Assembly (NCBI GenBank): GCA_038212275.1
Contig: JBBQUR010000002.1
Span: 96,001-160,000 of the forward strand
Source: Planctomycetota bacterium
GTDB taxonomy: Bacteria; Planctomycetota; B15-G4
Reading direction: 5' to 3'
DNA: 64,000 bases
The translations under genes and the position numbers were made by a program. The notes under the pieces were generated by a model. That model saw only the letters and a list, made by a program, of their open reading frames with translations, searched no databases and had not been told where the DNA came from. Shown here one piece after another: positions 9,799 to 59,935 of the stretch (positions within the stretch are counted from its first letter, which is position 1; every line of letters begins with the position of its first letter).

Positions 9799-9807
9799 CG
9801 GCGCCTC

Positions 9808-23777: not shown

Positions 23778-24094
23778 GGGCGCGGCCTGCGGATGCGCTT
23801 CGGCAGCCGGAGCTCGTCGAGGCCGAGCGCCAACTCATCGGTCGCGGGTGTGGCGAGGCTCCCGAGCCGATCGTGAAGCTGGAGGATGAAGGCCACCGTG
23901 GCCAGCGTGCCGGTCGCGACCGTCGGGTCGCCGCGCTCCAGGCGCCACAGCGTGTCGCGGCTGACGAAGGCGCGCGCCGCCATGTCGGCCGTGGAAATGC
24001 CGCGCTTGCGCCGGGCAAGTGAGAGGTCACGGCCAAGCCTGCGGAGTGCGTGCACCACGGGCAGCGGATGGGAGGATGCCTTGGACATCGACAT
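23774..24094 (-). CDS. HipB-like Xre HTH antitoxin (start uncertain)
   Basis: LGRDLSLARRKRGISTADMAARAFVSRDTLWRLERGDP; ATGA overlap with hipA. Confidence 0.88.
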   Translation of the reverse strand: MSMSKASSHPLPVVHALRRLGRDLSLARRKRGISTADMAARAFVSRDTLWRLERGDPTVATGTLATVAFILQLHDRLGSLATPATDELALGLDELRLPKRIRRPRP

Positions 24095-24133
24095 AATGTC
24101 GGCCATAGCAGTCAATAAATCAAATAACGTTGG

Positions 24134-24164
24134 ATATGACGGTCATATGGGATCGCAGATCCCA
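24134..24164. promoter_or_regulatory. Palindromes upstream of hipB (candidate autoregulatory operators)
   Basis: ATATGAC-G-GTCATAT and TGGGATC-GCA-GATCCCA in an AT-rich promoter region. Confidence 0.5.
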
Positions 24165-25375: not shown

Positions 25376-25431
25376 GCGCCTGGCCAACGGCTCCGTCCTG
25401 GTGGTCGGCGGCGGCCCGATGAGCGCGGAGA
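25374..25431 (+). repeat. Right direct repeat (orphan Kelch 3' end)
   Basis: Encodes ERLANGSVLVVGGGPMSAE versus ERLNDGTVLVVGGGPLSAE in the intact gene. Confidence 0.85.
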
Positions 25432-29764: not shown

Positions 29765-29851
29765 GGCGCGATGGACCGCCGGAGACGGGATCGCCACACT
29801 ACGCCGCCCCGTCATGCGCGCCAGCATTCCCCGCTTCACAGAGCTCGCCCG

Positions 29852-32167
29852 ATGCACACACGGACGCTGATCCTCGCGACCTCGCTCCTGGCTTCCTGCG
29901 CGTCGCAGGCGCCGACTGCTCCGACCGCTCTGCATGCGCCGTCGGCGCCGTCGGCGCCGTCGGCAGCGTCGGCAGCGTCGGCCCCGTCGGCCCCGTCGGC
30001 GCTCAGCGCGCCATCGGCGTCACGCCAAATCGCGCCGGCGGACGACTCGCCCGCCGCATCGGCTTCCCAGGCCGCTCCCGACCTGCAGCGCCTCGTCGTC
30101 GTGCAGAACGGCAGGACCGGCGAGGTGCTCACGCTGAGTGAGCTGCTCGATGCGCTCGAGGAGAGCGATGTCGTCTTCCTCGGCGAGTCGCACACGGACG
30201 AGACCACGCACCGCGTGGAGCTCGCGGTGTACGAGGGCCTGCTCGCGCGACGCGACGGCAACGTCGTGCTTGCCATGGAGATGTTCGAGCGCGACGCGCA
30301 GGCGGCGCTCGACGACTACCTCGCGGGCCGCATCGACGAGGCGGCCTTTCTCGCGGCCAGCCGGCCGTGGGGCAACTACCACACCGCGTACCGGCCGCTC
30401 ATCGAGGCCGCGCGCGCGGCGGGCGCGCCCGTCGTCGCAAGCAACTTCCCGCGACCGCTGCGCATGCAGCTCATGAAGGACGGACCCGACACGCTGGCCG
30501 CGCTGCGCGACGCGGGAAGCCGCGACGTGCCCGCCGAACTGCTCCCGAACACCGACGCCTACTGGCGCCGCGTGGACAACGCCGTGCGCGGCCACAAGGG
30601 CATGATGGGCGGCGACGACAGCCCGGAGGCGCGACTGCTCTCGACGCAGTCGCTCTGGGACAACTCCATGGGCGAGTCGTGCGCGCGCGCGCTCGATGAA
30701 CATCCGGGCGCACTGGTGCTGCACGTGAACGGCGGTTTTCACAGCGAATACTGGGACGGCACCGCATGGCAGCTGGCGTTGCGGAAGCCGGACGCACTCA
30801 TCACCAGCGTGGCCATCGTGCCGACGAGCCAGCCCGCCACCGCGGACGTCGGCGGCCTGCCCGCGGCGGACTACGTCGTGTTCGCGGAGCAGCGCGCGGA
30901 GGACCTGGAAGGCGGCATCGGCGCCGTCTTCGTGCCGCGCAAGCTCGAGTATCGCTTCCACCGGCCCGCGGACGCGTCCGCCGATGCGCCCGTTCCGCTG
31001 CTCATCTGGCTCTCCGACGACGGCCTCACCGCCGAAGAAGGCCTGGAGCTCTGGAAGGAGCGGCTGGGCGACGAGGCGGCGATCGCCGTGCTGGAGGCGC
31101 CGAATCTGGAGCTGCAGGCGGACCTCGCGCCGGGCGGACGCTGGTTCGGCGGCGACGACTTCACGCAGGAGGCCGACGGCCTGCGCTTCGCCGTCGAGCG
31201 CGTCGCGGCCTTCCTGTTGCAGCACGAGGCGATCGATCCGGCGCGCATCTGCGTGGCGGGTGAAGGCACCGGCGGCACGGTGGCCGCGGCCGTCGCCCTG
31301 CTGGGCGGGCCATTCGGCGTGCGCGCCGTCGCGCTGCAGCCGCGCGGCTTCGCAAACCTGCGCGACATCCCGCTGCCGCTGCCCGAACTGCGCGGGGACG
31401 AGCCGGCGCCGGACTCGTCGCTGCGCGTGGTGCTTGCCGCGCAGGACGGCTCGCAGCATTCCGGCGCCGCGTGGTGGACGACCGAGCTCGCCGAGTACGA
31501 GGGCGTCGGCCTGCCGGGCCAGCTCGTCGAGGTGAGCGACGACCCGTGGCTGTCGCAGCGGCGCGACGAAAATGAGTTGCGTGCGGCACTGGGTCTGCCG
31601 GTGCGCGAGGCACCGCCGGCGTCGGCTTCGGGCAGCCGGCCATGCGTGCTCGTCCCCGACGACTCGACGCGGGCGCTGCACTGGGCGCGGCTCTTCGCTC
31701 TGCGCGCCGAGGCGCTGTCCGGTCAGCCGGTCGCCGTGCTGCAGGCGATTCCGGCGGGCGAAGCAGCGCAGCCGCTGTCACTGCAGGTGAAGGCCGCGCC
31801 CTTCGCGGCGCCCGACATGCTGCCGCTCTGCCCCGGCGATTTCGGCGGGACGACCATCGTCGTGCTTCCCGCGCGCACGCCGGCGGAAGAGGTCCTCGCG
31901 TGGCAGGCGATGGCCGCGGACGATCCGCTCAACAAGCAGAGCCGCTTCCATCGCCTGCGCGTCGCCACGGCGGAGACCGGGCAGTTGGGCAAGCTCCTGG
32001 AAGAACTGGAAGCCATGCACCGCACGAACGTGCTCATCGTGCCGGCCACTTTTCACGCCGACGCCGAGGCGATGCTCGCGCTGCAGCGCGACGTGCGCGA
32101 CGTCCGCGACCGCTTCACGCTGCACTGGCTGCCGGGGCTGGGCAGGCAGCTTCAGCCTGGCGGCTGA
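29852..32167 (+). CDS. ChaN-family lipoprotein fused to alpha/beta-hydrolase-like and further domains
   Basis: Lipobox LASC; DVVFLGESH, LAMEMFERDAQ, QSLWDNSM, HVNGGFHS; then IDPARICVAGEGTGG. Confidence 0.82.
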   Translation: MHTRTLILATSLLASCASQAPTAPTALHAPSAPSAPSAASAASAPSAPSALSAPSASRQIAPADDSPAASASQAAPDLQRLVVVQNGRTGEVLTLSELLDALEESDVVFLGESHTDETTHRVELAVYEGLLARRDGNVVLAMEMFERDAQAALDDYLAGRIDEAAFLAASRPWGNYHTAYRPLIEAARAAGAPVVASNFPRPLRMQLMKDGPDTLAALRDAGSRDVPAELLPNTDAYWRRVDNAVRGHKGMMGGDDSPEARLLSTQSLWDNSMGESCARALDEHPGALVLHVNGGFHSEYWDGTAWQLALRKPDALITSVAIVPTSQPATADVGGLPAADYVVFAEQRAEDLEGGIGAVFVPRKLEYRFHRPADASADAPVPLLIWLSDDGLTAEEGLELWKERLGDEAAIAVLEAPNLELQADLAPGGRWFGGDDFTQEADGLRFAVERVAAFLLQHEAIDPARICVAGEGTGGTVAAAVALLGGPFGVRAVALQPRGFANLRDIPLPLPELRGDEPAPDSSLRVVLAAQDGSQHSGAAWWTTELAEYEGVGLPGQLVEVSDDPWLSQRRDENELRAALGLPVREAPPASASGSRPCVLVPDDSTRALHWARLFALRAEALSGQPVAVLQAIPAGEAAQPLSLQVKAAPFAAPDMLPLCPGDFGGTTIVVLPARTPAEEVLAWQAMAADDPLNKQSRFHRLRVATAETGQLGKLLEELEAMHRTNVLIVPATFHADAEAMLALQRDVRDVRDRFTLHWLPGLGRQLQPGG
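32074..32143 (+). repeat. Left direct repeat (3' end of ChaN gene) of the 18-kb block
   Basis: Matches 50153..50258 apart from expansion of a 9-bp unit and scattered substitutions. Confidence 0.88.
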
Positions 32168-32230
32168 GGCGCGGGAGCGCCTGCGCGCTCGCCGCCGTCT
32201 CTGCCGCCGTTTCGGCCGCCGGCAGAAGCC

Positions 32231-34579
32231 CTACGACAGCTTGAAGCGCCTGAGCCGCAGCGCGTTGCCGATGACCGACACCGAACTCAGGCTCATCGCG
32301 GCGGCCGCGAGCATCGGGCTCATGAGCGTCCCGGTGAACGGGTAGAGCACTCCCGCCGCGATGGGCACGCCCACGACGTTGTAGAGAAAGGCGAAGCCCA
32401 GATTCTGGCGGATGTTCCGCACCGCGACGCGACTCAGGCGACGGGCGCGGTCGATGCCGAGCAGGTCACCCTTCAGCAGCGTGACGGCCGCGCTTTCGAT
32501 GGCGGCGTCCGTGCCCGTGCCCATCGCGATGCCTACGTCGGCCTGCGCGAGGGCCGGCGCATCGTTCACGCCGTCGCCGGCCATCGCCACGCGGCGCCCC
32601 TGTTGCTGCAGCGCGCGAATGCGTTCCAGCTTCTGTTCGGGGAGAACGCCGGCGAACACCTCGTCGATGCCGAGCTCGCGCGCGACCGCCTCGGCCGTTG
32701 CCTGCGCGTCGCCGCTCAGCAGGACGATGCGCAATCCGTCGGCGCGCAGCTCGCGGATGGCCTGCGGCGTCGAGGCCTTCACCGGATCGGCGACGGCCAG
32801 GCAGCCCGCGGCCACGCCATCGACCGCCACGAGCATGGCTGTCCGTCCCTGGCGGCGCATGTCCTCGGCGCGCGGCTCCAGCGTGGCGACGTCCACGTGC
32901 AGCTCCGCGAAGAGCGCGGCGTTGCCGAGCGCGACCGTTCGCCCGCCGACACGACCCGTGATGCCCTTGCCCGTCAGCGAGCGGAAGTCCCCGGTCGGCT
33001 GCAGGGAAAGGCCGCGCTCCTGCGCGCCTTTCACGATCGCCGCCGCGAGCGGATGCTCGCTGCCGCGCTCCAGGCTTGCGGCAAGCGACAGCAGCTCGTC
33101 GGCGCGCGAGGCATCCGCCCACGCACCGACGGGTTCCACGGCCACGAGGCGCGGCTTCCCTTCGGTGAGCGTCCCGGTCTTGTCCACGACCAGCGTGTCC
33201 ACGTCGCGCAGGCGCTCGAGGGCCTCGGCGTCGCGGAACAGGACGCCGGCGTGCGCGCCGCGCCCCATGGCGACCATGATGGACATCGGCGTCGCGAGGC
33301 CGAGCGCGCAGGGGCAGGCGATGACCAGCACCGCCACCGCGTTGATCACGGCATGCGCAAGCCGCGGCTCAGGGCCGGTGCTCCACCAGATGCCGAAGGT
33401 GAGGACGGCGATCGCGATCACCACCGGCACGAACCACGCCGCCATCCGATCCGCCAGGCCCTGGATCGGCGCGCGGCTGCGCTGAGCCTGCGCCACCTGC
33501 GCCACGATGCGGGACAGCAGCGTCTCCGCGCCCACCTTCTCGGCGCGCATGACGAAGGAGCCCTGGCTGTTGCTGGTTCCGCCGACGAGCTTGTCGCCCG
33601 CCTGCTTCTCGACGGGCATCGACTCGCCGGTCACCATCGACTCGTCGAGCACACCGGTGCCTGTCAGCAGCACGCCGTCCACCGGGACGCTTTCGCCGGG
33701 CCGCACGCGCAGGCTGTCGCCGGGAACCACCTCGTCCAGCGGCACGTCCTGCTCGTCGCTTCCGGACACGCGACGCGCCGTGCGTGGCGCGAGATCGAGC
33801 AGTGCACGGATGGCTGCCCCGGTGGCGCGCCGGGCACGCAGCTCGAGCACCTGACCGAGCAGCACGAGCGTCACGATCACGGCTGCGGCCTCGAAGTAGA
33901 CCGGCACCACGCCGGAGTGATCCCGGAAGGTGGGCGGAAAGACGTCCGGCGCCAGCACGGCCGCCATGCTCAGGAGCCAGGCGGACAGCACGCCGAGCCC
34001 GATGAGCGTGAACATGTTGAGCCGCGGCCACGGGGCAGGGACCACCGAACGTGCGGCGCGCACAAGGAAGGGCCAGCCCGCCCAGAGCACGACGGGCGTG
34101 GCGAGTGCAGCCTCGATCCACTGCAGGTCACGCGGCGACCCCAGCCCTGCCAGCAGGCCCCCCGGCAGCATGTCGCCCATGGCCACCGCAAGCAGCGGCG
34201 CCGTGAGCACGGACGCGATGAGTGCGCGGCGCGACATGTCGTGCAGCTCGGCGTTCGCTTCCTTCGTTCCGGCAGCGCCGCCTTCCCCGTGCGGCTGCGC
34301 ACGGACCGGCACGAGCGGTTCCAGCGCCATGCCGCAGATCGGGCAGCTTCCGGGCCCCTCCTGCCGCACGTCGGGATGCATCGGGCAGGTGTAGACCGAC
34401 GCCACCGGATGCTTGTCCGGCCCGGGTCCGGCGCGCTTCAGGAAGGCGGCTGGATCGCCGCTGAAGCGCTCGCGGCAGCTCGCGCTGCAGAAGGCGTAAC
34501 GCACCGCGTCGTGCACGTGCACGTACTTCGCGTGGTCCGGATCGACGGTCATGCCGCAGACGGGATCAGTTGCCTGCAT
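32231..34579 (-). CDS. copA: Cu(+)-exporting P1B-type ATPase with YHS and heavy-metal-binding domains
   Basis: DPVCGM..FCS, YTCPMHP..CPICGM, TGES, CPC, DKTGT, SEHPL, GDGVND, YN and MSLSS. Confidence 0.95.
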   Translation of the reverse strand: MQATDPVCGMTVDPDHAKYVHVHDAVRYAFCSASCRERFSGDPAAFLKRAGPGPDKHPVASVYTCPMHPDVRQEGPGSCPICGMALEPLVPVRAQPHGEGGAAGTKEANAELHDMSRRALIASVLTAPLLAVAMGDMLPGGLLAGLGSPRDLQWIEAALATPVVLWAGWPFLVRAARSVVPAPWPRLNMFTLIGLGVLSAWLLSMAAVLAPDVFPPTFRDHSGVVPVYFEAAAVIVTLVLLGQVLELRARRATGAAIRALLDLAPRTARRVSGSDEQDVPLDEVVPGDSLRVRPGESVPVDGVLLTGTGVLDESMVTGESMPVEKQAGDKLVGGTSNSQGSFVMRAEKVGAETLLSRIVAQVAQAQRSRAPIQGLADRMAAWFVPVVIAIAVLTFGIWWSTGPEPRLAHAVINAVAVLVIACPCALGLATPMSIMVAMGRGAHAGVLFRDAEALERLRDVDTLVVDKTGTLTEGKPRLVAVEPVGAWADASRADELLSLAASLERGSEHPLAAAIVKGAQERGLSLQPTGDFRSLTGKGITGRVGGRTVALGNAALFAELHVDVATLEPRAEDMRRQGRTAMLVAVDGVAAGCLAVADPVKASTPQAIRELRADGLRIVLLSGDAQATAEAVARELGIDEVFAGVLPEQKLERIRALQQQGRRVAMAGDGVNDAPALAQADVGIAMGTGTDAAIESAAVTLLKGDLLGIDRARRLSRVAVRNIRQNLGFAFLYNVVGVPIAAGVLYPFTGTLMSPMLAAAAMSLSSVSVIGNALRLRRFKLS

Positions 34580-34630
34580 GTCGCACCCCCGCGTCCCCGG
34601 TACCGGCCGTCAGCATCTCGCGTGCGCTCT

Positions 34631-36163
34631 TCATGATCCGGGCACCAGCTTCATGCCGCACTTCGGGCAGCGGCCGGGTTCATGCGAGATGACCTCCGGA
34701 TGCATCGGGCAGGTGTAGACGGTGCCGGTCGCGTCGGCACTTCCGGGTGCGTGGGCGCTTCCGTCGGCTGACGTGGCTATCACGTCGATGCCGTCGCGCT
34801 GCAGATCCGCGGCGCTTGCCGTCTCGGCGACCGTGCCGGCCGGATACGTGTACCAGCCGGGATCACCGTCGCCGCTCAGCGACTCGCGCACCTTGAGGAT
34901 GGTGAACATGCCGCCCATCGTGATCACGTCGAAGGGGCCGCGGCCGCCCAGCATCGGGATGCTGTTCGGCGGCACCGCCATGCCCATCTCCGCCATGTCG
35001 CCCATGCCCGCCTGCCCCATGGTCATGTAGTCGGGCAGCAGTCCGCGCACCTCGCGGTCCAGCCCGCCCGACTTGACCCCGATCATGTTGGGGATCTTGT
35101 GCCCCATCTGGTTCATGACGTGGTGGGTCATGTGGCAGTGCATGGCCCAATCACCCGGCGCGTCGGCGACGAACTCGACGTTGCGCGTGCTGCCCGTGGG
35201 CACCAGCACCGTGGTCTCGGGCCATTGGGCGGACTCGGGGATGTCGCCGCCATCCGTCGCCGTGATCCTGAAGGCGTAGCCGTGCAGATGAATCGAATGG
35301 TGATCCATCGCACTCAGATTGCCGAAGCGCAGGCGCACGCGTTCACCCTGCTGCGCGATCAACGCCGGCGTCCCCGGGAAGGCGCGCGCGTTCATCGTGA
35401 GGATGTTGAAGTCCGTCATCTCGTTCGGGTCGGGCCGCGACGTCCCAGGCGCGATCTTCCATTCGCTGAGCATGATCGCGTAGTCGCGATCCGCGCGCGG
35501 CGCCTTCGATTCGCGCGGGTGCACGACGATGAGGCCCATCAGGCCCAGCGCCATCTGGGTCATCTCGTCGTGGTGCGAGTGGTACATGAAGGTGCCGTGC
35601 TGGCGCAGCGTGAACTCGTAGCGGAAGGTCTCGCCCGGCGGGATGGCGCGCTGGTTGAGCCCGCCCACGCCGTCCATCCCGTTGGGCAGGTAGATGCCGT
35701 GCCAGTGCGCGGTCGTCGGCGCGGGCAGCCTGTTGGTCACGTAGATGCGGACGCGATCACCCTCGACCGCCTCGATGGTCGGGCCGTGCACCGAGCCGTT
35801 GTAGCCCCAGCACTCCGCGAAGAGCCCCGGCGCGAACACGTGCCGCACCGGCTCTGCGACCAGGTGGTAGACCTTCACGTCGTCGACGATTTTCCACGGC
35901 AGCGTGCTGCCGCCGGGCGTGATGACGGGCAGGTAGTCGGTGCCCGGCATGCCCGGCGGCAGCGAGGTGGCATGCGGTCCGGGAGCGGGAGGCCGGGCCG
36001 GGCCTGCGGCAGCAGCTGCCGCCGCTGCGCCCGTTGCAGCTGCCGACTCGCGGAGCGGGAGTGCCTGCGCACCCGATGCCGCGCCTGCCAGCAGCGCGCC
36101 TCCCGTGAGCATGGCGCCGCGGACGATGACCTCGCGTCGCGAAAGATCCTGCGGGGAACTCAT
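34631..36163 (-). CDS. Tat-exported multicopper oxidase with C-terminal heavy-metal-binding domain
   Basis: SRR signal; HWHG, MYHSH, HSIHLHG, HCHMTHH; YTCPMHP..CPKCGM. Confidence 0.92.
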   Translation of the reverse strand: MSSPQDLSRREVIVRGAMLTGGALLAGAASGAQALPLRESAAATGAAAAAAAAGPARPPAPGPHATSLPPGMPGTDYLPVITPGGSTLPWKIVDDVKVYHLVAEPVRHVFAPGLFAECWGYNGSVHGPTIEAVEGDRVRIYVTNRLPAPTTAHWHGIYLPNGMDGVGGLNQRAIPPGETFRYEFTLRQHGTFMYHSHHDEMTQMALGLMGLIVVHPRESKAPRADRDYAIMLSEWKIAPGTSRPDPNEMTDFNILTMNARAFPGTPALIAQQGERVRLRFGNLSAMDHHSIHLHGYAFRITATDGGDIPESAQWPETTVLVPTGSTRNVEFVADAPGDWAMHCHMTHHVMNQMGHKIPNMIGVKSGGLDREVRGLLPDYMTMGQAGMGDMAEMGMAVPPNSIPMLGGRGPFDVITMGGMFTILKVRESLSGDGDPGWYTYPAGTVAETASAADLQRDGIDVIATSADGSAHAPGSADATGTVYTCPMHPEVISHEPGRCPKCGMKLVPGS

Positions 36164-37776
36164 GGATGATCTCCGTGCTGGTGCATGGGCATTGGCATGG
36201 GCATGGGAGCGGATTCAGCGGGCTGCTGATCCGGCGCGTCGCTGGAAAGTCCGATCGCGGGCGGAGCCATCAGGGCGCTCTCCACAGCGGTCGTGGGAAC
36301 GGATGCAAGCGAACCGCCCACTGCGCGTTCGAGCGCCGTGCGGGCCAGCCAGTAGTCGCGCAGTGCTTCGACGCTCTGCCGCCCCGCGTCGATCTCGGCG
36401 CTGCGCGCCATGAGCAGCTCGAACACGCCCAGTTGCATCGCGTTGTAGTGGAGCTGCGTCTGCTGCACGATGCGGTCGCGCAGCGGAAGCACGACGGCGC
36501 CGAGGTAGTTGGCCCGCGCGCGCGCCGCCATCAATCTCGCCTGCTGGGCACGCACTTCGGAACGGATCCGCACGGCGAGCGCGACGTACTCCTGCTGGCT
36601 GCGCCGCAACAGCGCCTCGTCGCGTGAACGGCGCGCCTGTCCCTGGTCGAAGAGCGGCACGGGCAGGCCGATGGAAGGGCCCGTGGTGGTGTCACCCTGC
36701 GGCTCGCGTTCCAGATGCACTCCGACCTCGAGCGACGGAATGAGGGCCGTCGTGTCGGTGAGGTCGAGCACCGCGGCGGCGGCCTCGATCTCCCGCGCGG
36801 CCAGCGTCAGGTCGAGACGCTGGCTGAGGGCGAGCTCCTGAAGACCCTCGGGCGTGAGTTCCCGGTCGGGAAGTTCCGGCAGGCGCTGCGCGACCGTCCA
36901 CTGCGTGTCGTCGCCCCACAGGCCCATGAGCGCCGACAGCGCCTCGCGTCGCTGCACGAGGTCCGCCTCGGCCTGCAGCAGGTCCAGGCGCGCCGCGCCT
37001 TCGGCGACGGCTTCCGTTTCATACTCGAGCTCCGTGACGTTGCCGGCCTCGCGCAGGCGTCGCGCCACGTCGGCGGATGCGCCGGTGGCCACGACCACCG
37101 ACTGCCGGAGCTCCACGGTCTGCTCCGCAGCCTGCACCTCGAAGAAGGCCGCACGGACGTCGGCTGCGAGATCGATGACGGCATTCGCCACGCGCAACTG
37201 CGCGGCCTCGAACCCGGCCGCGGCCACGCGCTCGCGCAGCGAACGCGTGAAGATGCTCATGACGTCCTGGATCAGGTGCACCTCCAGCGGCCGGTGAGGA
37301 TCTCCGGGGAAGCGCAGCTCGAAGTCGAGGAAGGGGTTGGACAGCAGGCCGGCTTGCACGAGGTCCGCCTGCGAAATGCCGAGATCCTCGAAGGTGCTCT
37401 GCAGTCCCGCATTCCTGAGCAGCGCGATCTGCACCGCCGCGTCGAGCGTGAGTTCGTTCCGGAGCAGGTCGCTCACGAGCTGGGCGGCCTGCGCATCCTC
37501 CGGCCGTCCGCGATCCCAGGCGACGCGCTGCGGCACACGCTCCGCGACGAGGGACTGCACGGCTTGCAGGCCGCTGTCGTCGTCGATCGTGGTGCATCCC
37601 GCAAGTCCGGGCAGGCCTGCGAGGATCAGCAGCGCCCACCGGCGAGAGCGCCTGCGGGTCGTCAAGCGTGCGCATGCGAGCTGGGCTGGAGCCGGCGCGC
37701 TGGCGTGCCCGCGCTCCGGAAGGAGGCAATCCGGCATCCGTCCGTGGACGCCTGACAGAGGCTGAATTGTCTTCAT
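36160..37776 (-). CDS. TolC/OEP-family outer-membrane lipoprotein of the copper operon
   Basis: LAGC lipobox; AVQIALLRN, QAGLLSNP, LPVPLFDQG; Met/His-rich tail; ATGA overlap with the oxidase. Confidence 0.88.
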   Translation of the reverse strand: MKTIQPLSGVHGRMPDCLLPERGHASAPAPAQLACARLTTRRRSRRWALLILAGLPGLAGCTTIDDDSGLQAVQSLVAERVPQRVAWDRGRPEDAQAAQLVSDLLRNELTLDAAVQIALLRNAGLQSTFEDLGISQADLVQAGLLSNPFLDFELRFPGDPHRPLEVHLIQDVMSIFTRSLRERVAAAGFEAAQLRVANAVIDLAADVRAAFFEVQAAEQTVELRQSVVVATGASADVARRLREAGNVTELEYETEAVAEGAARLDLLQAEADLVQRREALSALMGLWGDDTQWTVAQRLPELPDRELTPEGLQELALSQRLDLTLAAREIEAAAAVLDLTDTTALIPSLEVGVHLEREPQGDTTTGPSIGLPVPLFDQGQARRSRDEALLRRSQQEYVALAVRIRSEVRAQQARLMAARARANYLGAVVLPLRDRIVQQTQLHYNAMQLGVFELLMARSAEIDAGRQSVEALRDYWLARTALERAVGGSLASVPTTAVESALMAPPAIGLSSDAPDQQPAESAPMPMPMPMHQHGDHP

Positions 37777-38399
37777 GATCGAGTGAGTCCGCTGCCGCGA
37801 AGTGTGTCGAGTGCACGCGCATCGCCCGGGCGCGCCTGCACGGATGGAACACGTGCCGTAGCGGTCCGGTCTGCCGCGATCGGGACGTCAGCGTCGCTTC
37901 GCTGGCGTCCGTGGAGCGGCTCGACGCCGGGCGTCGGCCTGCTCCGGTCGCATCCACACCGATACGAACAGTGGATCACGTAGAGCGGCGGCGGTCGCGA
38001 TCGGTCCGGCGCGCTGCTCGGAGCGCAACTCACCGGCGCGGCCACGAGAGGCCGGAACGAAGGCATGCGCTCGAGGAAGGCGTGAGCCGCCCCATGATCG
38101 GCGCCCATGTCCGGCTTTGCCGGCTCGCCGACGAGGACATCCGAATCCGCGCAATGGCAGATGTCAGCTGGTCGCTCGTTGCCGAGCCGCGGGCAGCCCG
38201 AGGCCGGCGCCGCACGCTCATGCGTCGTGCCGTCTCGTTCGGCGGCGCAGCACGCGCTCGTGCGGGCCGCATGCCCGCCGGATCCTTCTTTCCCGTCGCA
38301 ATCGCACCAGCCGATGCGCCCGCCCGTGGCGATGGCCAGCACGAGCGGCGCCATCAACCAGAACGTCCACGGTCTGTGCATCAGGAAGGACGATCTCAT
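37773..38399 (-). CDS. Cys-rich hypothetical protein leading the metal-efflux operon
   Basis: Hydrophobic N-terminus; CDC, CC and CHC motifs; RSRPPPLYVIHCSYRC. Confidence 0.55.
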   Translation of the reverse strand: MRSSFLMHRPWTFWLMAPLVLAIATGGRIGWCDCDGKEGSGGHAARTSACCAAERDGTTHERAAPASGCPRLGNERPADICHCADSDVLVGEPAKPDMGADHGAAHAFLERMPSFRPLVAAPVSCAPSSAPDRSRPPPLYVIHCSYRCGCDRSRPTPGVEPLHGRQRSDADVPIAADRTATARVPSVQARPGDARALDTLRGSGLTRS

Positions 38400-38505
38400 G
38401 AGGCTCGCGACACTAGCACGCAGTGCCGAGCGGCGCACATGGCTTCGGGCACTTTCCGCCGGTCACGCCTCACGTCGACGCCGAGACGGAAGGCGGCTCA
38501 CGGAC

Positions 38506-38676
38506 TCGGAGCTTCACCGTCCGCAAGCGCAGTGCGTTGCCGCTCACCGGGACGGAACTCATGCTCATCGCCGCGCCCGCGATGAGCGGGCTGAGCAGCA
38601 GGATGATCGGGCTGAGCAGCAGGCCGAAGAACGCGTGGAGCACCCCCGCTGCAAGCGGAATACCCGGCGCGATGCC
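38506..38676 (-). pseudogene. 3' remnant of a second copper P-type ATPase
   Basis: GIPLAAGVL..GLLLSP..AGAAMSMSSVPVSGNALRLRTVKL, with a 21-bp internal duplication at 38581-38622. Confidence 0.8.
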
Positions 38677-38915
38677 GACTTCGGCTCCCCGCCTCGGTGG
38701 GCATCGGACAGGTGCAGACCTGCCCGGCCGCCGAAAGGGCGGCTGGCTGGGCGGCGCGATGCAGCGCCGCGCCCGATCGCGCCGGTCTCCTGCTCCCGAC
38801 TGCCGGCACGAATGCCTGCGCCGAGCCGTTTCTACAAAGCGGTCTGCACGCACGCGCGACTCACGTCGCGGTCCGGCTCACTGCCACGGCGCCCACGCCC
38901 GCATGCGTCGCAGGA

Positions 38916-39101
38916 CTATCCGCAGCAGCTGCCGGCTTTGGGATCCACCTTCGAACCAGCCGGCGCAGCGAGGAACTTCTGCTGGCAGCGGCTGCTGCAG
39001 AAATAGAATGTTTTTCCATCGCGGTCGGTGTGCAGAGCGGTTTTTTCATCCACGGCCATTCCGCAGACGGGGTCCTTGTTCACGACTTTGGGTTCTTTCA
39101 T
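38916..39101 (-). CDS. Stand-alone YHS-domain protein
   Basis: KDPVCGMAVD...FYFCSSRCQQKF...SCCG. Confidence 0.85.
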   Translation of the reverse strand: MKEPKVVNKDPVCGMAVDEKTALHTDRDGKTFYFCSSRCQQKFLAAPAGSKVDPKAGSCCG

Positions 39102-39160
39102 GGTCTTGTTCCTGTTTCCTGGGACGGAGCAGCATGTGGCTCCGTGGTTGTGTCAAGCCT

Positions 39161-39280
39161 TCACGACGAAGACTTCCTGGACACCCTGCTGAAGATGACG
39201 ACGAGCAGCGCGGCTACAGCCAGGCCGAGCACGGGCCAGATCCACATCTGGCCGTCCATCCATCCCTCTGCATGATCCAT
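39161..39280 (-). CDS. 39-aa single-pass membrane protein
   Basis: Manual translation MDHAEGWMDGQMWIWPVLGLAVAALLVVIFSRVSRKSSS. Confidence 0.6.
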   Translation of the reverse strand: MDHAEGWMDGQMWIWPVLGLAVAALLVVIFSRVSRKSSS

Positions 39281-39334
39281 CACGAGGCACCTGCCTTTGT
39301 GCTGCGATCAGCCCGATTCGGACGATCCGCGCGG

Positions 39335-39493
39335 TCAGGCTCGCTTCGCGCGGAAGCCGCCGGCCAGAAGGATGATCAGGCCGACGAGCAGCACCAGCCC
39401 GAGCCCCCCGCCACCGTAGGCCGGCCCTCCGAAATAGTAGCCGCCACCACCGAACAGAAGCAGGAGAACCACGACAAGGACAAGTGTGTTCAT
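39335..39493 (-). CDS. Small Gly-rich membrane protein (DUF3309-like)
   Basis: MNTLVLVVVLLLLFGGGGYYFGGPAYGGGGLGLVLLVGLIILL. Confidence 0.75.
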   Translation of the reverse strand: MNTLVLVVVLLLLFGGGGYYFGGPAYGGGGLGLVLLVGLIILLAGGFRAKRA

Positions 39494-39609
39494 GGGAACG
39501 ATTCCGAAAGAGGAAAGACTGGCAGGCGAGATGGCGCCCTCGGGAAGACAACAGCAAGTCGCGCTCCAATGGCGGCAAGTCCGGAGGCGGACCCTGAGGC
39601 GGGCGTCAC

Positions 39610-42600: not shown

Positions 42601-45600
42601 GGAGATGCCGAAGGTCCACAGGCCGGGCTGGCCCAGCTCGCTGGCCGCGAGCGTGGCCGCGTCGGCCCGCAGCGAGGCGTCGACGTACAGCACGCGCGAC
42701 GCGAGTCGCTCGAAGAGCAGGGCGTCCTCGCTCGTGATCTCGAGGTGGCGCAGTCCGCTCCGTGCGTGCGTGAAGGCCAGCGCGAAGGTGCGGGAAGCGG
42801 CGACCGGGTCGTGGTACTTGCGCGCCAGCGCCTCCGCCGTCTCGCGATCGCTGGCGATGCCGGTCGCGAAGCACAGCCGCACCGACGCACCCGGCGCCAG
42901 GCGGATGCGCAGCCGCAGGCTCAGGATCGGGTCGAGCACGAAGCCGGTGGTGCCCGACAGCGCGCGGCCGTCGAGCGCTGCGGGCGAGCGCGTGTCGCGG
43001 CCGCGGCCGAGGAAGCGCGCCCGGTCGGTCTCCCATTCGACGGAGCTCTGCAGGCGGCCCTCGAGGCTGAGCACGTGCACGGCCCAGCGGCCCGGCTCGC
43101 GCGCGTCGCGCGGCCGCCGTTGGCACAGCAGCGCCGTGCTGTCCGGGAGGTACTCCGTGTGCAGGAAAAGCTTGCCGAAGGCCGGGTGCGCCAGGTCCTC
43201 CGCCTGCGCGGCGAGCACGACCTCCACGAGACTCGTCACGTCGATCTCGCGCACGCGCGGACCGTGATTCGACACGCGCAGCCGGCGCACCTCGATGTCG
43301 TCCTCGGTGGAGACCGCGACCTCGAGCTGGGTGGAGATGTCGCCGTCGCGGCGCCGGAAGGTCGCCTCCTCGGGACTGAACTCGACGAGGTAGTCGTCGG
43401 GCTCGTGCGCGGTGGGCAGGTAGGTCGCGGACCAGAGCGTGCCGTCGCGCACGTCGCGCAGGTAGATGCACGAGCCGCCCGGGTCGCAGGTCGCATCGCT
43501 TCGCGCGCGCGTGACCGCGAGGCCTGCGCTGAAGCTGCTCCCGCCGCCGGCGTTCGTGACCACCGTGACGAAGTTCCCGTTGGACAGGAACTGCGCGTGC
43601 GGAAACACGGTGTGCGGCGAGCGCACGCGCCGCACCGGCAGCGCGGGCAGCGGCGCCACCACGCGCATGTCGTCCAGCGGGCGCGGCTCGATCGCCGGGA
43701 CGTGCCGCGGCACGCGCTCCTGCAGCAGCAGCTCGGTGGCCTGCACGCGCGGATCGGCGTGAAAGCGCCGCGACATCGGCTCGCCGCACAGCGCGTTGCA
43801 GAGCGCGACGAGCGTCATCCCGGTGTGGTGAGCAAAGAAGGTCTGGACGACGACACCGACCTTGCCGTCGCCCGCCGGCGCGCCCTCGCGCGCCTCCGCG
43901 TCGCGCTGCGTGTAGTCGATCGACTCGAACAGGCCGTAACGGCCGGCCAGCCCTGCGGCCCCCAGGCGGCGCAGATTGGCGGCGCACTCCGCGGGCGCGA
44001 TGCTCGCGGCCAGCGCCGAGGCGTATGGGGCGACGACGAGGTCGTCCCCCAGCCCGCGCTTGAGCCCGAGGCCCGGCACGCCGAAGGCCTTGTACTGGTA
44101 GGTCTCGTGCCGGTCCACGACGTTGTATGCGCTCTCGGAGACGCCCCACGGCACGCCGCGCGCGTGCGCGTACTCCAGCTGCCGGCGCACGACCATGCGC
44201 GACGACTCATCGAGCAGCGTCTCGGGATAACTGCGCATGACGAGCCTCGGCATGAGGTACTCGAACATCGAGGCGCTCCACGACAGCAGCACCGGCGTGC
44301 CGTGTACGGTCGTCACCGAGCGGCCGAGGTGGAACCAGTGCGTCTGCGGCACGTCGCCCTTGGCAATGGCGAGGAAGCTCGCGACGCGTGCCTCCGACGC
44401 GAGCAGGTCGTAGAAGGACGCATCCGGGCGGCCCGGATTCTCCGCGTCGGCGAGCCGGTAGCCGATGGTGAAGAGCTTCCGCTCCGCATCGAAGAGGAAG
44501 CGGAAGTCCATGCGGTCGAACAGTTCGCCGGCGCGCGCGGCGAGCGCCGGCAGCCGGGCGTCATCGCCAAGCTCCGGCAGCGCCGAGGACAGCGTGAGCA
44601 GCGCGCTGGCCAGGTTGCCGCTGTCCACGGTCGACACGTATTTCGGGAGCAGCGGCTCGAGCGTGCGCGTGTCGTACCAGTTGAGCAGGTGGCCCTGGAA
44701 ATGCTCCAGCCCCTCCAGCGTGGACAGCGTCGCGTCGAGGCGCACGATGAGCGCCTCGGTGTCGATGAAGCGGAAGTCGTGCGCCGCGAGCGTGGCCAGC
44801 AGAGACATGCCGATGTTGGTCGGCGACGTGCGGTGCGCCACCGTCTCCTGCGGCACGAGCTGGATGTTGTCGGGCGGGAGGAAGTGGTCCTCGGGACCCA
44901 CCAGATCCCGGAAGTATTCCCAGGTCCGCAGCGCGAGCTCGCGCAGGAAGTCGCGATCCGCCTCGCTCAGCACCGTGGTGCGCACCGTGACCGGGAGGCT
45001 GAGCACGTACGCCAGGTACGGGGCGGCCAGCCACGCCGCCAGCAGCGGCCACGCCACGTGCAGCGCCGCAGGCTTCACCGCGAGCAGCAGGCCCAGCGAA
45101 GCCAGCGCGATGGCCGGGCTGGCGATCATCGTGCGCAGGAAGACTCCCACGCGCGGTTGGCCGACGCGATGCGCACTGGCGGCTGCCGTCTCCCACTCCA
45201 GCAGCCGGTGGTGCGTGAAGAACAGGCGGATCACCGTGACGAGGATCGCGTGCACCATGTCGGCCGCCTGGTGCGCGAGACAGGCCAGCTGGAGTGCGCC
45301 ACGCGCCGCCACCGGGCTCAGCTCATCGAAGCCGCCGCTCGCCCAGGCGCGCCACGTCTCGCCCGCCACCGGACCGGCCAGCGCACGCAGGAGCTGCAGC
45401 AGCACCGGCAGCGCGATCGGCGCGAGCACCATGGCGGTCCACGCCCACGGGCGCCCGGGCAGCAGCGTCCAGCCGCACAGAAGCGCGGCGATCGTCGCCG
45501 GCGCCGACAGGCTGCGGCGCAGGTTGTCGAGGATCTTCCAGCGCGCGATGAATGGCAGGCGGTTGCGCTCGATGCCATGGCGCGTGGGCACGAACGGGAA

Positions 45601-47949
45601 CAACCACCACAGGATCTGCCAGTCGCCCCGCACCCAGCGGTGCTGGCGGCGCGCGTGCGCGAGCACGCTGGCCGGATAGTCGTCCACGACCTCCACGTCG
45701 GTGACCAGCGCCGTGCGCGCATAGAGGCCCTCGAACAGGTCGTGCGAGAGCAGTGCGTTCTCCGGCACGCGCCCCGCGAGCGACGCGACGAAGGCGTCCA
45801 CGTCGTAGAGGCCCTTGCCGGTGTAGACACCCTCGTGGAACAGGTCCTGGTAGGTGTCGGAGACCGCCGTGGTGTAAGGGTCCACGCCGGTGTGGCCGGC
45901 GTAGGTGCGGGCGAAGAGCGAGCCGGCCGCGCTGGCCATGGTGACGCTCACGCGCGGCTGCAGGATGCCGTATCCCCCGGTCACGCGCCCCGCCACGCCG
46001 TCCACGTGCGGGCGGTTGAGCGGATGCTCGATGATGCCGATGAGTTCGCACGCCGCGTCGCGCGGCAGTCGCGTGTCCGAGTCGAGCGTGAGGCAGTAGC
46101 GCACCGACGGCAGGATGGACAGCTCGCCGACCTGCGTGGCGAAGCTCGTGTCGGTGGCGCCGCGCAGCAGCCGGTTGAACTCCTCGAGCTTGCCGCGCTT
46201 GCGCTCCCAGCCCATCCACGCGTGTTCGCGCTCGTTCCAGCGACGCTCGCGATGGAACAGGAAGAACCGGTCGGCGTGCGCCGGGCCGAAACGCCGGTTG
46301 AGGGCCTCGATGCCCGCGCGCGCCGCGTCGAGCAGCGCGGCGTCGCCGGGCAGCTGCGCCGAGTCCGCATCCACGAAGTCGCTCAGCAGCGCGAAATGGA
46401 TGCACGGATCCGTGTTGCCGAGCGCGAGCACCTCCAGATGTTCCAGCAGGTGCGCCACGCCCGACAGGTTCGTGAGCAGCGTCGGCACGACGACCATCGT
46501 GCGGGCGCTCGCGGGAATGCCCGTCTTGAAGCTCATGCGCGACAGGCGCCGCGGCGGGATCGCCCAGGCCGCGACGCGCTGCACGAGGCCGATGGCCAGG
46601 TCCGCGCAGGGCAGCAGCAGCAGCAGCGCGGCCAGCGCCATGGCGGACCGCGAGGCGCCGGCCTGCCACGCGTACCCGGCCGTCGCCGCGACCAGCAGCG
46701 CCGTCAGCAGACCGATGGGCAGCAGATACACGGGCGTCGGGTGCGCGAAGACGAAACGACGCAGCCGGCCTCGAAACTTCGGCCGACAGGCGACGTCCGC
46801 CTCGAGCCGGGCTCGCCCGCGGTCGATCAGGTGGTAGCCGACGTGCGTCGCAGCAGTCTGCGCCGCGACACTCTGCGCGGCCTGCCGTGCGCTCTCGATG
46901 GCGCGCAGCGCGACGCGCACCTGCGCCTCGCCCGTCGGCGCGGCCAGCTCCTCCACGGCCTGCCGCTGCCGGTCGCGGCTGAGGAAGTCCATCTGGCCGT
47001 AGGCGCCCGCCGGATCGCGCTGCAGCACGCGCTCCACGAGACTGACGGACTCCACGTACTTCGGCCAGTCGAGCACGGAACACAGCCGCAGGCTGGTGAT
47101 GGCGTTGGCCACCGACACCTGCGTGGCCGCCTGGCGCTGGTGCTCGCTGCGCACCTCGTCCTCCGCGGTCGCGTGCCGCGACGCCAGGTGCGCGTCGATC
47201 GCCGTGCGCACCGAGGCAAGACGCGGCCCGTACTCGCGCAGACGGTGCAGCAGCTGGACGACATACGCGGCGCCGGGCGACACCGGCAGCGAGCACGCCA
47301 GAAAGCCGCCCGCGCTCTCCAACCGCGACACGTATCCGTCCGCGGCCAGGCGCTGCCTGCGCGACTCCGTGATGCCGTCCGAGAGGCGCCGCAGGTTTTC
47401 GACGAGCGCAAGCCGCAGCATGCTCGGCCACGCCCACAGCTCGCCGATGGTGAGCGGCGCCACGCGCTGGTAGCTCTCCACGAAGAGCGTGAGTTGCTGC
47501 AGCGTCAGCCGGCTGTCGCTGTGCCGCAGCAGCTCCACCGCCATGGCATAGATGCGCGCTTCTCCGTCGTGCTCGCGCGAGGCGAGTCGCGTTAGCTCCC
47601 GGTAGTAGGTTCGCGGCAGGTTGCGCCGCACGTCCCGGATCTCGGAGGACAGCAGGTGGAAGTTGTCCAGCAGCCACTCGGCCGCCGGCGTGACGAAGCG
47701 GGAGGCGCGCACGTCGGACGCCAGCGTGAGGTAGGCCTCACGCAGGACCCGGGCGTTGTCCTCGAAGCGCGGGAAGATGTCGCGCGCGCGGCGCTCGGCA
47801 TCCAGCGTGAAGCTGGCGCCCAGCGACAGCGCACGCTCCTCGAGCCGCTCCATGCTGAGCAGTTCGTCGCGGAAGGGCTTGTCCGGTTCCGGCGCGCTCC
47901 CGCCCAGCAATCGTCGGAGGGCTCGAATCAAGGCAGCCTCCCGGGACAT
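39610..47949 (-). CDS. ndvB: Cyclic beta-1,2-glucan synthase (Cgs/NdvB/ChvB) with C-terminal GH94 phosphorylase
   Basis: [81 protein letters not shown]. Confidence 0.95.
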
Positions 47950-47999
47950 CGCGGAGCGAGCACGGAGCCACGCTGGCTCCGCAGCCCACGCATCCACAT

Positions 48000-48016
48000 A
48001 GCAAGCCGCATGCCAA
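48000..48016 (-). promoter_or_regulatory. Sigma-54 promoter of the glucan synthase gene
   Basis: Minus strand TTGGCATGCGGCTTGCT = GG-N10-GC, about 50 bp upstream of ATG 47949. Confidence 0.7.
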
Positions 48017-48221
48017 AGCCTGCGTGCCCCCGCACCGTTCGGCACGACGCGCGTGGGACCGGATGCCGGCGTCACGCGGCACCGACCGCCGCAGGTGCGT
48101 GGCGCCGCATCCCGACCGCACGCGGGTTCTACAAATCACTGCGCGCGTTGTCGCGGGCCCCCGGATCCCACCGTGCCGCCGGGGACGGCGAGGGGCGCGG
48201 CTCTCCGCACACTCTCTCGAT

Positions 48222-49910
48222 TCACGCCTTCCGCTGCGCTTCGGTCGGCGAACGACCCGCGCCCTGAGCCACGGCCAGCGCGGCGGTCACAATCCTCCGC
48301 GCTTCCTCGGCGATGCTGCGCAGGTGCGCCGCGTCGGCAAAGCTCTCGGCGTAGATCTTGTAGATGGCCTCGGTGCCGGACGGGCGCGCCGCGAACCATC
48401 CGCTTCGCGTCACCACCTTCACTCCGCCGAGAGAAGCCTTGTTCCCCGGAGCGCTGGTGAGAATGGCTTCGATCGGTTCGCCGGCCAGTTCCTCGAGTTC
48501 AATCTGCGCCGGCGACAGCTTCGCCAGCAGCTTCTTCTCGTCCGGCGTGACCGGAGCCTCCGTGCGATCCTGGAAGGGCTCGCCCAGGTCGCGGGTCAGG
48601 CTGCGGTAGATCGAGCCGGGGTCCTCGCCCGCGCGCGCCGTGATCTCCGCGGCGAGCAGACAGGGGATGAAGCCGTCCTTGTCGGTCGTCCACACGCGAC
48701 CGTCCCGCCGGAGGAAGGACGCGCCCGCGCTCTCTTCGCCCCCGAAGCCCAGCGAGCCGTCGAGCAGGCCGTCCACGAACCATTTGAAGCCCACCGGCAC
48801 CTCGAAGAGGCTGCGGCCGAGGCGCCTGGTCACGCGATCGATCATCGAACTGCTGACCATCGTCTTGCCGACCGCTGCGGTGACGGGCCACCCCGGGCGA
48901 TTCCGGAAGAGCTGGTCGATCGCCACGGGAAGAAAGTGATTGGGCGGGAGGAGTCCGTCGCCGGGTGTGACGATGCCGTGCCGATCATGGTCGGTGTCGC
49001 ACGCGAACGAGAGATCGAAGCGGTCCTTCATCCCGATGAGGCGTGCCATCGCATGAGGCGAGGATGGGTCCATGCGGATCTGGCCGTCCCAATCCACGGT
49101 CATGAAGCGGAAGGTGGGATCGACCGCGTCGTTGACGACGGTCAGGTCCAGCCCGTGGCGCTCCGCGATCCGCGCCCAGTAATGGACGCCGGCGCCGCCC
49201 AGCGGATCGACGCCAAGCCGGAGCCCTGCGCCGCGGATGAGGTCCATGTCGACGACATGGCCGAGGTCGTCGATGTAGCCGGAGAGATAATCGTGCCGGT
49301 GCGTCGTCGCCGCGCGCAGCGCCTGCTCGTGGGGCACGCGTTTCACGTCCGCAAGCCGGGCTTCGAGCAGCGCGTTGGCGTGCGCCTCGATCCACTCCGT
49401 GATGGCTGCCTCTGCCGGTCCGCCGTGCGGCGGGTTGTACTTGAAGCCGCCGTCATGCGGCGGATTGTGCGACGGCGTGATGATGATGCCGTCGGCGAAC
49501 CCGTCGTGTCGCCCGCGGTTGAAGGCCAGGATCGCGTGCGAGATCACCGGAGTGGGCGTGTATTCGTCCGCTTCGGCGAGCATCACGTCGACGGAGTTCG
49601 CCGCCAGGACCTCCAGCGCCGTGGCGCAGGCCGGGACCGACAGCGCATGCGTGTCCATGCCCAGGAAAAGCGGGCCGGTGATCGCGTGGCTTGCGCGGTA
49701 GCGGCAGATCGCCTGCGTGATCGCGACGATGTGCGCTTCATTGAAGGCCCGGTTGAACGACGAGCCGCGATGCCCCGAGGTACCGAACGCCACGCGCTGC
49801 GCCGGCACGCCAGGGTCGGGCCGGTCCGTGAAATACGCGCTGATGAGCCGCGGCACGTCGACCAGGATTCCGGCCGGCGCCGGCTTGCCGGCCAGCAGGC
49901 TGATGTTCAT
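48222..49910 (-). CDS. pgm: Phosphoglucomutase (glucose-1,6-bisphosphate dependent)
   Basis: FGTSGHRG, TPSHNP, DTDHDR, GEESAG, RPSGTE. Confidence 0.96.
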   Translation of the reverse strand: MNISLLAGKPAPAGILVDVPRLISAYFTDRPDPGVPAQRVAFGTSGHRGSSFNRAFNEAHIVAITQAICRYRASHAITGPLFLGMDTHALSVPACATALEVLAANSVDVMLAEADEYTPTPVISHAILAFNRGRHDGFADGIIITPSHNPPHDGGFKYNPPHGGPAEAAITEWIEAHANALLEARLADVKRVPHEQALRAATTHRHDYLSGYIDDLGHVVDMDLIRGAGLRLGVDPLGGAGVHYWARIAERHGLDLTVVNDAVDPTFRFMTVDWDGQIRMDPSSPHAMARLIGMKDRFDLSFACDTDHDRHGIVTPGDGLLPPNHFLPVAIDQLFRNRPGWPVTAAVGKTMVSSSMIDRVTRRLGRSLFEVPVGFKWFVDGLLDGSLGFGGEESAGASFLRRDGRVWTTDKDGFIPCLLAAEITARAGEDPGSIYRSLTRDLGEPFQDRTEAPVTPDEKKLLAKLSPAQIELEELAGEPIEAILTSAPGNKASLGGVKVVTRSGWFAARPSGTEAIYKIYAESFADAAHLRSIAEEARRIVTAALAVAQGAGRSPTEAQRKA

Positions 49911-50152
49911 GGCTTTCCTTTCTCCGGCGCACCCTGAAGGGCTGCCGGCTTCGTCGTCAGGTCTCGGTTCAGCACGATACCTGCATGGCCGCCTGCGCCG
50001 GCCTCAACCTCTACTCCGCATCAGTTCTCGCTACCCACACGAATGCCTGAAGACCCGAACAATGTAGGCAGTCGCTTACGGGCCCGCGTTCCGCGGCATG
50101 CTGAATCCACGCGCGCAGTCCCGCTGGAGTCGGAGCCGAAGCTGAAGCTGAA

Positions 50153-50258
50153 GCTCGCGCTGCAGCGCGACGTGCGCGACGTGCGCGACGTGCGCGACGT
50201 GCGCGAGGTGCGCGACTTCCGCGACCGCTTCACGCTGCACTGGCTGCCCGGGCTGGGC
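50153..50258 (+). repeat. Right direct repeat (orphan ChaN 3' end with expanded CGCGACGTG units)
   Basis: LALQ-(RDV)x4-REV-RDF-RDRFTLHWLPGLG versus LALQ-RDV-RDV-RDRFTLHWLPGLG. Confidence 0.88.
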
Positions 50259-50300
50259 GGGAGCAGCGCCGGCGCGCCGTGAGCGGCCGGGGTCGCGGCT

Positions 50301-54049: not shown

Positions 54050-54173
54050 GTCACCGCCGCATGTCTCTCCATCTCACCTTGCTAAGATCAAGTCGCTCGC
54101 CCGTGGCCTGCCGCGATGCCACCGTCGTAACGACTCAGGCATCACTCCAGCAGCTCGGATCGCCCTGTGCGGC

Positions 54174-59858: not shown

Positions 59859-59935
<77 letters not shown>

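Follow-up and report, generated by a model that had tools for sequence, protein, structure and literature searches.

Why should the last stretch of an intact gene recur, in the same orientation and still in frame, 18 kb further along the same contig? The locus that raises this question lies in a window of 64,000 nucleotides (contig C2, positions 96001-160000) from the genome bin of an uncultured planctomycete (4.65 Mb in 40 contigs, 91% complete), where a gene of the ChaN family is followed by a block of about 18 kb with an orphan copy of the near-terminal ChaN sequence at its far edge. The label Planctomycetota is also carried by ChaN homologues in the protein database. The two copies of the ChaN end are interpreted here, tentatively and with somewhat less than even confidence, as the two junctions, left and right, at which an additive insertion took place long ago, namely a decayed and integrase-less insert of the type known as a cis-mobilizable element (CIME). 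Domains were assigned with Pfam profile searches, tandem arrays with TRF and RNA families with Rfam at gathering score, and the edges of the repeat were assessed by alignment against 300 shuffles.

The initial annotation of this DNA had described some 70 bp near the end of ChaN as recurring 18 kb away, with a 9-bp unit expanded from two copies to six and a frame open to a stop at 50282, and reading and alignment of the two copies confirm this description. The copy inside the gene (copy A) and the orphan (copy B) have the same orientation and differ by two substitutions outside the 9-bp array, and the exact stretches common to both are 30 and 31 nt long. In the window repeat search the pair was recovered with 93% identity over 61 nt and 95% over 40 nt (repeat families D5 and D10). 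The 9-bp unit GACGTGCGC is present in two copies in ChaN versus about six in the orphan, where TRF reports a period of 9 and 6.8 copies at 50165-50225. Both copies open with the perfect 12-nt palindrome GCGCTGCAGCGC (32079-32090 and 50158-50169), which may bind a protein or may have arisen by chance in coding DNA of high GC content. Across the 4.65-Mb genome there are only two strong copies, matched in two pieces at E 4.6e-20 and 5.5e-13; the other four of the seven genome matches are GC-rich stretches of 26-56 nt at E 7e-5 to 9e-4. That the repeat of the ChaN end far exceeds chance is confirmed.

Alignment of the copies shows identity that is high only in the middle of the repeat and drops on either side. 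For the right flanks (150 nt each) the observed alignment score was reached by 79 of the 300 shuffles, and for the left flanks (likewise 150 nt each) by 299 of 300. No ChaN sequence beyond the end piece was recovered when the whole of ChaN was compared by tblastn with the 4 kb on either side of the orphan, and a search of the genome for other sources of the orphan flanks, both here and at the second orphan described below, returned chance matches of 17-26 nt only. A promoter and terminator scan at the ChaN end found nothing. Where near-identity is confined to a block and the tails beyond it are unrelated, an att core seems a closer parallel than homology between close alleles. The remnant of a tandem segmental duplication was considered and rejected, as the tails and flanks are no more alike than shuffles and there is no further match at the protein level.

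The two tails are informative about ancestry. ChaN ends in RFTLHWLPGLGRQLQPGG (also written LALQRDVRDVRDRFTLHWLPGLGRQLQPGG) before its stop, and the orphan, whose frame is open to the stop at 50280-50282, in LALQRDVRDVRDVRDVREVRDFRDRFTLHWLPGLGGSSAGAP (also written FTLHWLPGLGGSSAGAP). The stop of the orphan and that of ChaN share one codon offset; of 40,000 trials at random genome positions, 9.3% had a stop within seven codons and 1.1% had one at precisely this codon. Orthologues align up to ChaN residues 791-798, and the database homologues are named 'ChaN family lipoprotein'. Among the nearest available relatives of ChaN, 12 of 14 from metagenomes and 10 of 12 from the protein database have an end of the form PGLGG, with glycine at +1 after PGLG; beyond it lie up to about 20 residues of variable sequence, or none, as in GGRRAP, GGSTVDVNHP and GGIPAGG. 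The tail of the orphan, GGSSAGAP, is consistent with such short and variable ends. Leucine or isoleucine at +3 after PGLG is shared by 14 of 15 GTDB relatives and by the intact ChaN, but not by the orphan. With a PGLGG tail on the orphan and a leucine at +3 in the gene, both look like genuine ChaN ends of different ancestry, and the ChaN-type tail together with the stop at the same offset makes the orphan most likely a true ChaN end, with a tail of different descent from the one that ChaN now carries. On a first view, taken from the GTDB relatives, the orphan had been regarded as an internal fragment without a 'canonical' tail, but this was reversed by the PGLGG-type tails of nearer relatives. 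A crossover with incoming DNA inside the gene end would leave a tail of this kind, which neither plain duplication nor a templated patch of random origin would produce.

A ChaN-type tail with its own stop would also remain if a second full-length ChaN, paralogue or xenologue, had once stood upstream of the 292-aa gene that now follows the orphan and had lost its first 2.2 kb, the 73 bp being kept alike by gene conversion; identity that is high in the middle and falls on both sides agrees with such a history. It is nevertheless decidedly improbable, given that no further upstream trace of ChaN exists at the protein level and that the 5' edge of the orphan is sharp. Duplication, deletion and conversion would all be required, and the second orphan in the window, which derives from a Kelch-repeat gene, would be left unaccounted for.

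Direct repeats, sharp edges and an in-frame orphan fit the geometry expected from a single crossover in the last 100 bp of a gene, and an insertion at such a place, supplying a new end, is harmless to the gene. From these features, the stop and the gene content we infer the event, its direction and the enzyme as follows. Circular DNA of about 18 kb would have carried 73 bp matching near-terminal ChaN, together with a seven-codon tail and stop of its own. A single recombination between this circle and the chromosomal ChaN would have kept the gene whole, with the incoming RQLQPGG and stop as its new end, and would have displaced the native end (PGLGGSSAGAP and stop), leaving it orphaned in front of the old downstream gene. 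The orphan would have been free to drift since then, and two short tandem units may have expanded in it. The copper-export set, the cyclic glucan synthase and the phosphoglucomutase of the block would either have been brought by the insert or have accreted later. The crossover could have been made either by a site-specific recombinase, since lost or acting in trans, or by host recombination on the 73 bp. As the block holds no recombinase now, it would be a fixed and immobile CIME remnant or else the product of host recombination on short homology.

The features of the block and its surroundings are collected in Table 1. Copper-export clusters are frequent cargo of islands. The stretch between the efflux gene and the small YHS-domain gene, which gives no clear coding signal, could be decayed DNA.

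Table 1. Features of the ChaN locus, of the second orphan and of the tRNA-Asn island; positions are those of the window unless a contig is named.
Feature	Positions	Strand	Remarks
Kelch-repeat gene	20964..22475	+	repeat copy at 22398-22461, ending 14 nt before the stop
hipA	22521..23777	-	between the Kelch copies
HTH hipB-like gene	23774..24142	-	between the Kelch copies; toxin-antitoxin pair with hipA
AAA_14/DUF4143 ATPase gene	24516..25375	+	between the Kelch copies; 5'-truncated, frameshifted
Orphan copy of the Kelch gene end	25367..25431	+	89% over 65 nt
ChaN-family gene	29771..32167	+	798 aa, intact; PF04187, E 1.7e-52
Repeat copy A, 73 bp, inside ChaN	32074..32146	+	two units of 9-bp GACGTGCGC; ends 21 nt short of the stop codon
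Tail A	32147..32167	+	last seven ChaN codons and stop, RQLQPGG; sequence unrelated to tail B
Copper-type P1B ATPase, CopA-like	32231..34579	-	YHS, HMBD, E1-E2 ATPase and HAD domains (Pfam)
Multicopper oxidase	34631..36163	-	C-terminal HMBD domain (Pfam)
Outer-membrane efflux protein, OEP/TolC-like	36160..37776	-	stop overlaps the start of the oxidase gene by 4 nt
About 1.1 kb without clear coding signal	37777..38915		frame scan of third-position GC; no Pfam family for its open reading frames
Small YHS-domain protein, 61 aa	38916..39101	-	putative copper-binding partner; PF04945, E 1e-13
Cyclic beta-1,2-glucan synthase-like giant protein, 2821 aa	39610..48075	-	GH94 supersandwich and catalytic domains
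Phosphoglucomutase	48222..49910	-	four PGM_PMM domains
6-bp tandem array, AGCTGA, 3.7 copies	50134..50155	+	TRF; abuts the 5' edge of the orphan
Repeat copy B, orphan, 109 bp	50153..50261	+	the 73 bp of copy A and four extra 9-bp units; array at 50165-50225
Tail B	50262..50282	+	seven codons and stop, GSSAGAP, in frame with the orphan
Right-flank gene, no known family, 292 aa	50301..51179	-	convergent on the orphan; stops 18 nt apart
tRNA-Asn island	contig C4, 252.9-258.2 kb (C4:249000-262000, about 3945-9190)		70-bp repeat of the tRNA 3' half, 96%; 5.1-kb insert

Whether the assembled arrangement exists as drawn was judged from read-level data in the form of Logan contigs (k=31), from runs coded X1, X3 and X4. 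The stretch is present in two sediment runs, though the k=31 contigs are interrupted within the repeat and cannot phase the junctions. Exact-contig depth in run X1 is 22.6-29.5 in the block versus 26.8 on the right flank, and this evenness suggests that the assembled arrangement is the main form of the population and not a minor variant. No bridging or skipping joint of use was found among the joints listed; one joint (44549 to 50162, runs X3 and X4), one of its sides covering only 20 nt, was disregarded. An assembly artefact, in which a wrong join at the shared exact stretches of 30-31 nt has brought together a block and flanks that do not occur in any one cell, could be suspected in a 40-contig bin whose repeat interrupts the Logan contigs. 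It is highly improbable, however. The copies differ in their units (two versus six) and by substitutions, so both sequences exist in the reads, and the exact stretches they share are shorter than usual reads. The assembled form also pairs a normal spacer length with an intact gene, and depth is even across block and flank.

The initial annotation also spoke of a second case within 30 kb of the first, and this is real: the near-terminal sequence of the Kelch-repeat gene recurs as an orphan, with a hipA/hipB-like toxin-antitoxin pair and a damaged ATPase gene between the copies (Table 1). A genome scan gave 55 rows in which one copy of a repeat lay in a good open reading frame (ORF) and its partner did not. 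Six of these, from five genes, fell within 57 nt of the stop and had orphan copies of the last 140 bp or less; most of the other rows were dispersed non-coding repeat or paralogues. The five genes are ChaN, the Kelch gene, a carbamoyltransferase on contig C29, a peptidase-like gene on C8 (orphan on C5) and a gene on C23 (orphan on C7).

Two of these orphans have a setting of their own. On C5 (segment 46000-65900, at 6944-10336) there is a low-GC islet with an IS630-type DDE_3 transposase and a Schlafen-like (SLFN-g3) helicase, and at its end lies an orphaned copy, 89 bp long, 93% identical and with the stop included, of the 3' end of a 627-aa gene, C8 72845-74728. On C29 (segment 10000-24000, at 5163-11000) a tandem unit is doubled that consists of the last 138 bp of the carbamoyltransferase gene, a DUF5989 membrane gene and CvpA, with identities of 98% over the 138 bp, about 85% (DNA) in the next gene and 72% (protein) in CvpA. 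The first copy of this unit holds a low-GC insert of 3.3 kb with a CarboxypepD_reg surface protein, at the 97th percentile of tetranucleotide distance. One orphan end beside a transposase (C5) and one bounding a low-GC insert (C29) lend support to insertion at gene ends.

A good deal nevertheless weighs against an insertion from outside at ChaN. The scanned ORFs of the window comprised sets of 13 and 16, 75 stop-to-stop ORFs from two unclear stretches and a further 18 (one of them, window 28576-29764, in the wrong frame), and they gave no Pfam match to a recombinase, transposase, excisionase or transfer-gene remnant. No hidden recombinase pseudogene was found in the 75 stop-to-stop ORFs. The claim of the initial annotation that neither recombinase nor transposase lies inside the block is thus borne out as far as Pfam reaches. 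PF00589 has six matches in the genome and none on this contig, the four tyrosine recombinases of the genome that are not Xer-like being encoded on contigs C30, C17, C35 and C4, and no Rfam family reached its gathering score between 20 and 54 kb. A shift in composition at the borders, which the same annotation had proposed to look for, is absent: GC in the block is 0.65-0.74 with no step at either border, GC at third codon positions (GC3) is 0.83-0.92 in the block genes versus 0.86-0.89 in the flanks, and the tetranucleotide distance of the block falls at the 27th percentile among 235 genome windows of equal size, all as in the host. A genomic island defined by composition was rejected on these figures. 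The genome has no phosphoglucomutase of this type other than the one in the block (next match 29%, E 1.7e-6), for which orthologues of 62-66% identity were found in 8 of 15 genomes of the same family, with weak matches only in two more, and the best match of CopA (69%) also lies within the organism's own family.

A second gene of this neighbourhood was found in none of 9 GTDB ChaN loci, 80 metagenome ChaN loci, 11 loci with the phosphoglucomutase gene (pgm) or the 292-aa gene, and 7 Kelch loci; no empty site was found because no relative shares the gene order here. In the activated-sludge run X4, a contig at least 90% alike keeps tail A and 39 nt past the stop and is unrelated from 32206 onwards, so tail A is not confined to this arrangement and downstream of ChaN a related organism has another neighbour; the loose end of 30 letters at 32206 in that contig matched nothing in the window at three mismatches or fewer. 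At the Kelch locus the orphan match stops 12 nt before the end and lacks the conserved last four codons. The end AE[IV][YF]QP followed by the stop, present in 9 of 9 and 30 of 31 Kelch homologues, is missing from it, so that this orphan fits better as a breakpoint or the result of later decay than as a displaced native end. No motif common to the ChaN, Kelch and tRNA-Asn repeats was obvious by eye, no alignment having been run.

These comparisons are set against distant relatives. In a set of 40 relatives the closest ChaN has 56% identity; for the 80 metagenome loci the figure is 61-67%, on partial contigs, and in the protein database the ChaN C-terminus has best matches of 52% (near-length proteins) and 58% (short proteins). 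A patchy distribution, which speaks for insertion, is shown by the glucan synthase, occurring in 1 of 15 genomes of the organism's own family versus 4 of 8 (f4) and 4 of 5 (f5) in sister families, with full-length matches at 59-62% identity. The Kelch islet is compositionally native (5th percentile of tetranucleotide distance). Elsewhere in the window, about 6 kb of lower GC (down to 0.55-0.61) at 53400-59850 abuts the 3' end of a tRNA-Met gene (59859-59935, minus strand) and encodes a Laminin_B-domain protein, along with a nucleotidyltransferase-like ORF (DUF6036) and ORFs that belong to no family; neither an integrase nor a repeat of the tRNA-Met end was found in it. By composition this stretch looks more island-like than the 18-kb block.

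Much of this evidence would suit a scar of internal rearrangement in which no DNA was acquired, whether a tandem duplication with its left end in ChaN, trimmed afterwards through illegitimate deletion, or a short copy templated by nearby sequence and made during repair or replication restart. The 18-kb block would then be native, and pgm and the 292-aa gene would always have been neighbours. The native composition, the single-copy housekeeping-type pgm inside the block, the lack of mobility genes and the Kelch orphan, which is an internal fragment broken off 12 nt short of the conserved end, all speak for such a history, as do the slippage arrays at and within the ChaN orphan. Taking away the 109-bp orphan leaves an ordinary spacer of about 280 bp between pgm and the 292-aa gene, and C29 offers a real tandem unit, with its left end 138 bp before the carbamoyltransferase stop and the downstream genes duplicated too. 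The tail is where this history falls short: a duplicate's tail should equal its parent's, yet the two are unrelated, and the ChaN-like end of the orphan with its stop at the same offset is left unexplained. Nor does it explain why both source fragments, of ChaN and of the Kelch gene, lie in the last 100 bp of their gene, for which a random source has a probability of about 1 in 20. A pair of events would have to end no more than about 100 bp apart, and this would have had to happen twice; no Ku gene for end-joining was found in the genome, which is 91% complete. Internal rearrangement is considered the main rival, possible but less likely than insertion.

The initial annotation had gone further and proposed that cargo is repeatedly acquired at the 3' ends of coding sequences. 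The geometry, the ChaN-like tail and the additional orphan ends agree with this proposal, but the native composition of the block and the Kelch tail do not. A lineage that adds gene blocks repeatedly at such ends without a resident recombinase, with the last 60-140 bp of a gene as sole anchor, is a very doubtful prospect, although one that would leave recognisable footprints. Its crossovers would depend either on the host's own recombination with circularised DNA of related organisms or on a small number of integrases that work in trans at many different sites, and the footprints would be the five genes with orphan ends and several segments of 3-18 kb between direct repeats of 48-138 bp with no recombinase inside.

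Among known systems, prophages and islands that integrate in the 3' ends of protein genes bring a substitute end with them, as do e14 and phage 21 in icd of E. coli and elements in guaA and fda, and they encode their own integrase next to one junction. The ChaN locus resembles these in that the target gene is intact, with an end that would have come from the element, and in that the orphan at the far junction would be the displaced end, but differs in that identity here stops 21 nt before the stop codon and the tails are unrelated. A control within the same genome is provided by the island at a tRNA-Asn gene (Table 1), which carries a tyrosine integrase (PF00589, E 1.9e-14), an excisionase-like HTH_17 gene at the tRNA end and a DUF3427 helicase. 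Its repeat is of the same size class as that of ChaN, but it has an integrase and its target is a tRNA. The C29 locus is similar to ChaN in having an orphan of a gene's last 138 bp in direct orientation 4.5 kb downstream, but there the homology continues through the stop into the next genes, whereas the ChaN homology gives out before the stop, with no duplicated sequence beyond it.

The closest comparison for an insertion at ChaN is with CIMEs, defined by Guedon et al. (2017, PMC5704250) as integrase-less blocks between attL/attR-like repeats in the 3' end of a gene. As in that definition, direct repeats flank the block here, one of them inside the ChaN 3' end, and no recombinase is present; the right repeat carries what may be the displaced end of the target gene, although such tails are short and variable and the Kelch orphan lacks this feature. 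The locus departs from the definition in having no remnant of an integrative and conjugative or integrative and mobilizable element (integrase, relaxase or transfer genes) in the Pfam scans, and no related active element or matching integrase was identified. The cargo is also compositionally native and includes a housekeeping-type gene, and CIMEs are known mainly from Firmicutes, whereas this is an uncultured planctomycete. The ChaN locus would be a new case of a CIME-type block. To our knowledge no CIME-type element has been described in this phylum, no literature search on that point having been made.

Two further candidates were rejected. Diversity-generating retroelements have a template and a variable repeat at a gene 3' end, adenine-specific mismatches and a reverse transcriptase nearby, and the ChaN locus shares with them 60-140 bp of coding sequence close to a gene end that has an imperfect copy nearby. 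However, the mismatches, which in ChaN are G/T and G/C and in Kelch of mixed kinds, are not tied to adenine, and there is no reverse transcriptase on the contig, the single RVT_1 match of the genome being at the end of contig C12. A transposon with target-site duplication does not suit a repeat that is 73 bp long and imperfect in a block without transposase; terminal inverted repeats were looked for by self-BLAST of the window only, which gave one 41-nt inverted match elsewhere, and no further search was made.

Other repeats were recorded in the same genome. At 18915-19040 of the window about ten copies of the 9-bp unit TGGCGCAGG lie inside a multidomain protein of 1869 aa with GDSL lipase, DUF7133, F5/8 type C, cupredoxin and cytochrome c domains. 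On C16 (segment 87000-95000, at 2212-5437) a 126-bp repeat (99%) made up of an upstream region, start codon and signal-peptide-like start heads two successive genes, the first for a CarboxypepD_reg protein of 1003 aa and the second for one of 184 aa. Contigs C36 (14313 bp) and C40 (3469 bp) each have the same sequence at both ends (233 bp at 97% and 82 bp at 100%, respectively), which would fit circular molecules or repeat-bounded assembly ends.

As it stands, the ChaN locus is an ordinary kind of genome scar. If it does record an insertion into the end of the gene, att-like scars can outlast every trace of the element that made them, and orphan gene ends would offer a cheap marker for such insertions in other metagenome-assembled genomes. 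This uncultured planctomycete would then have gained copper export and cyclic-glucan synthesis as one block, with the target gene unharmed.

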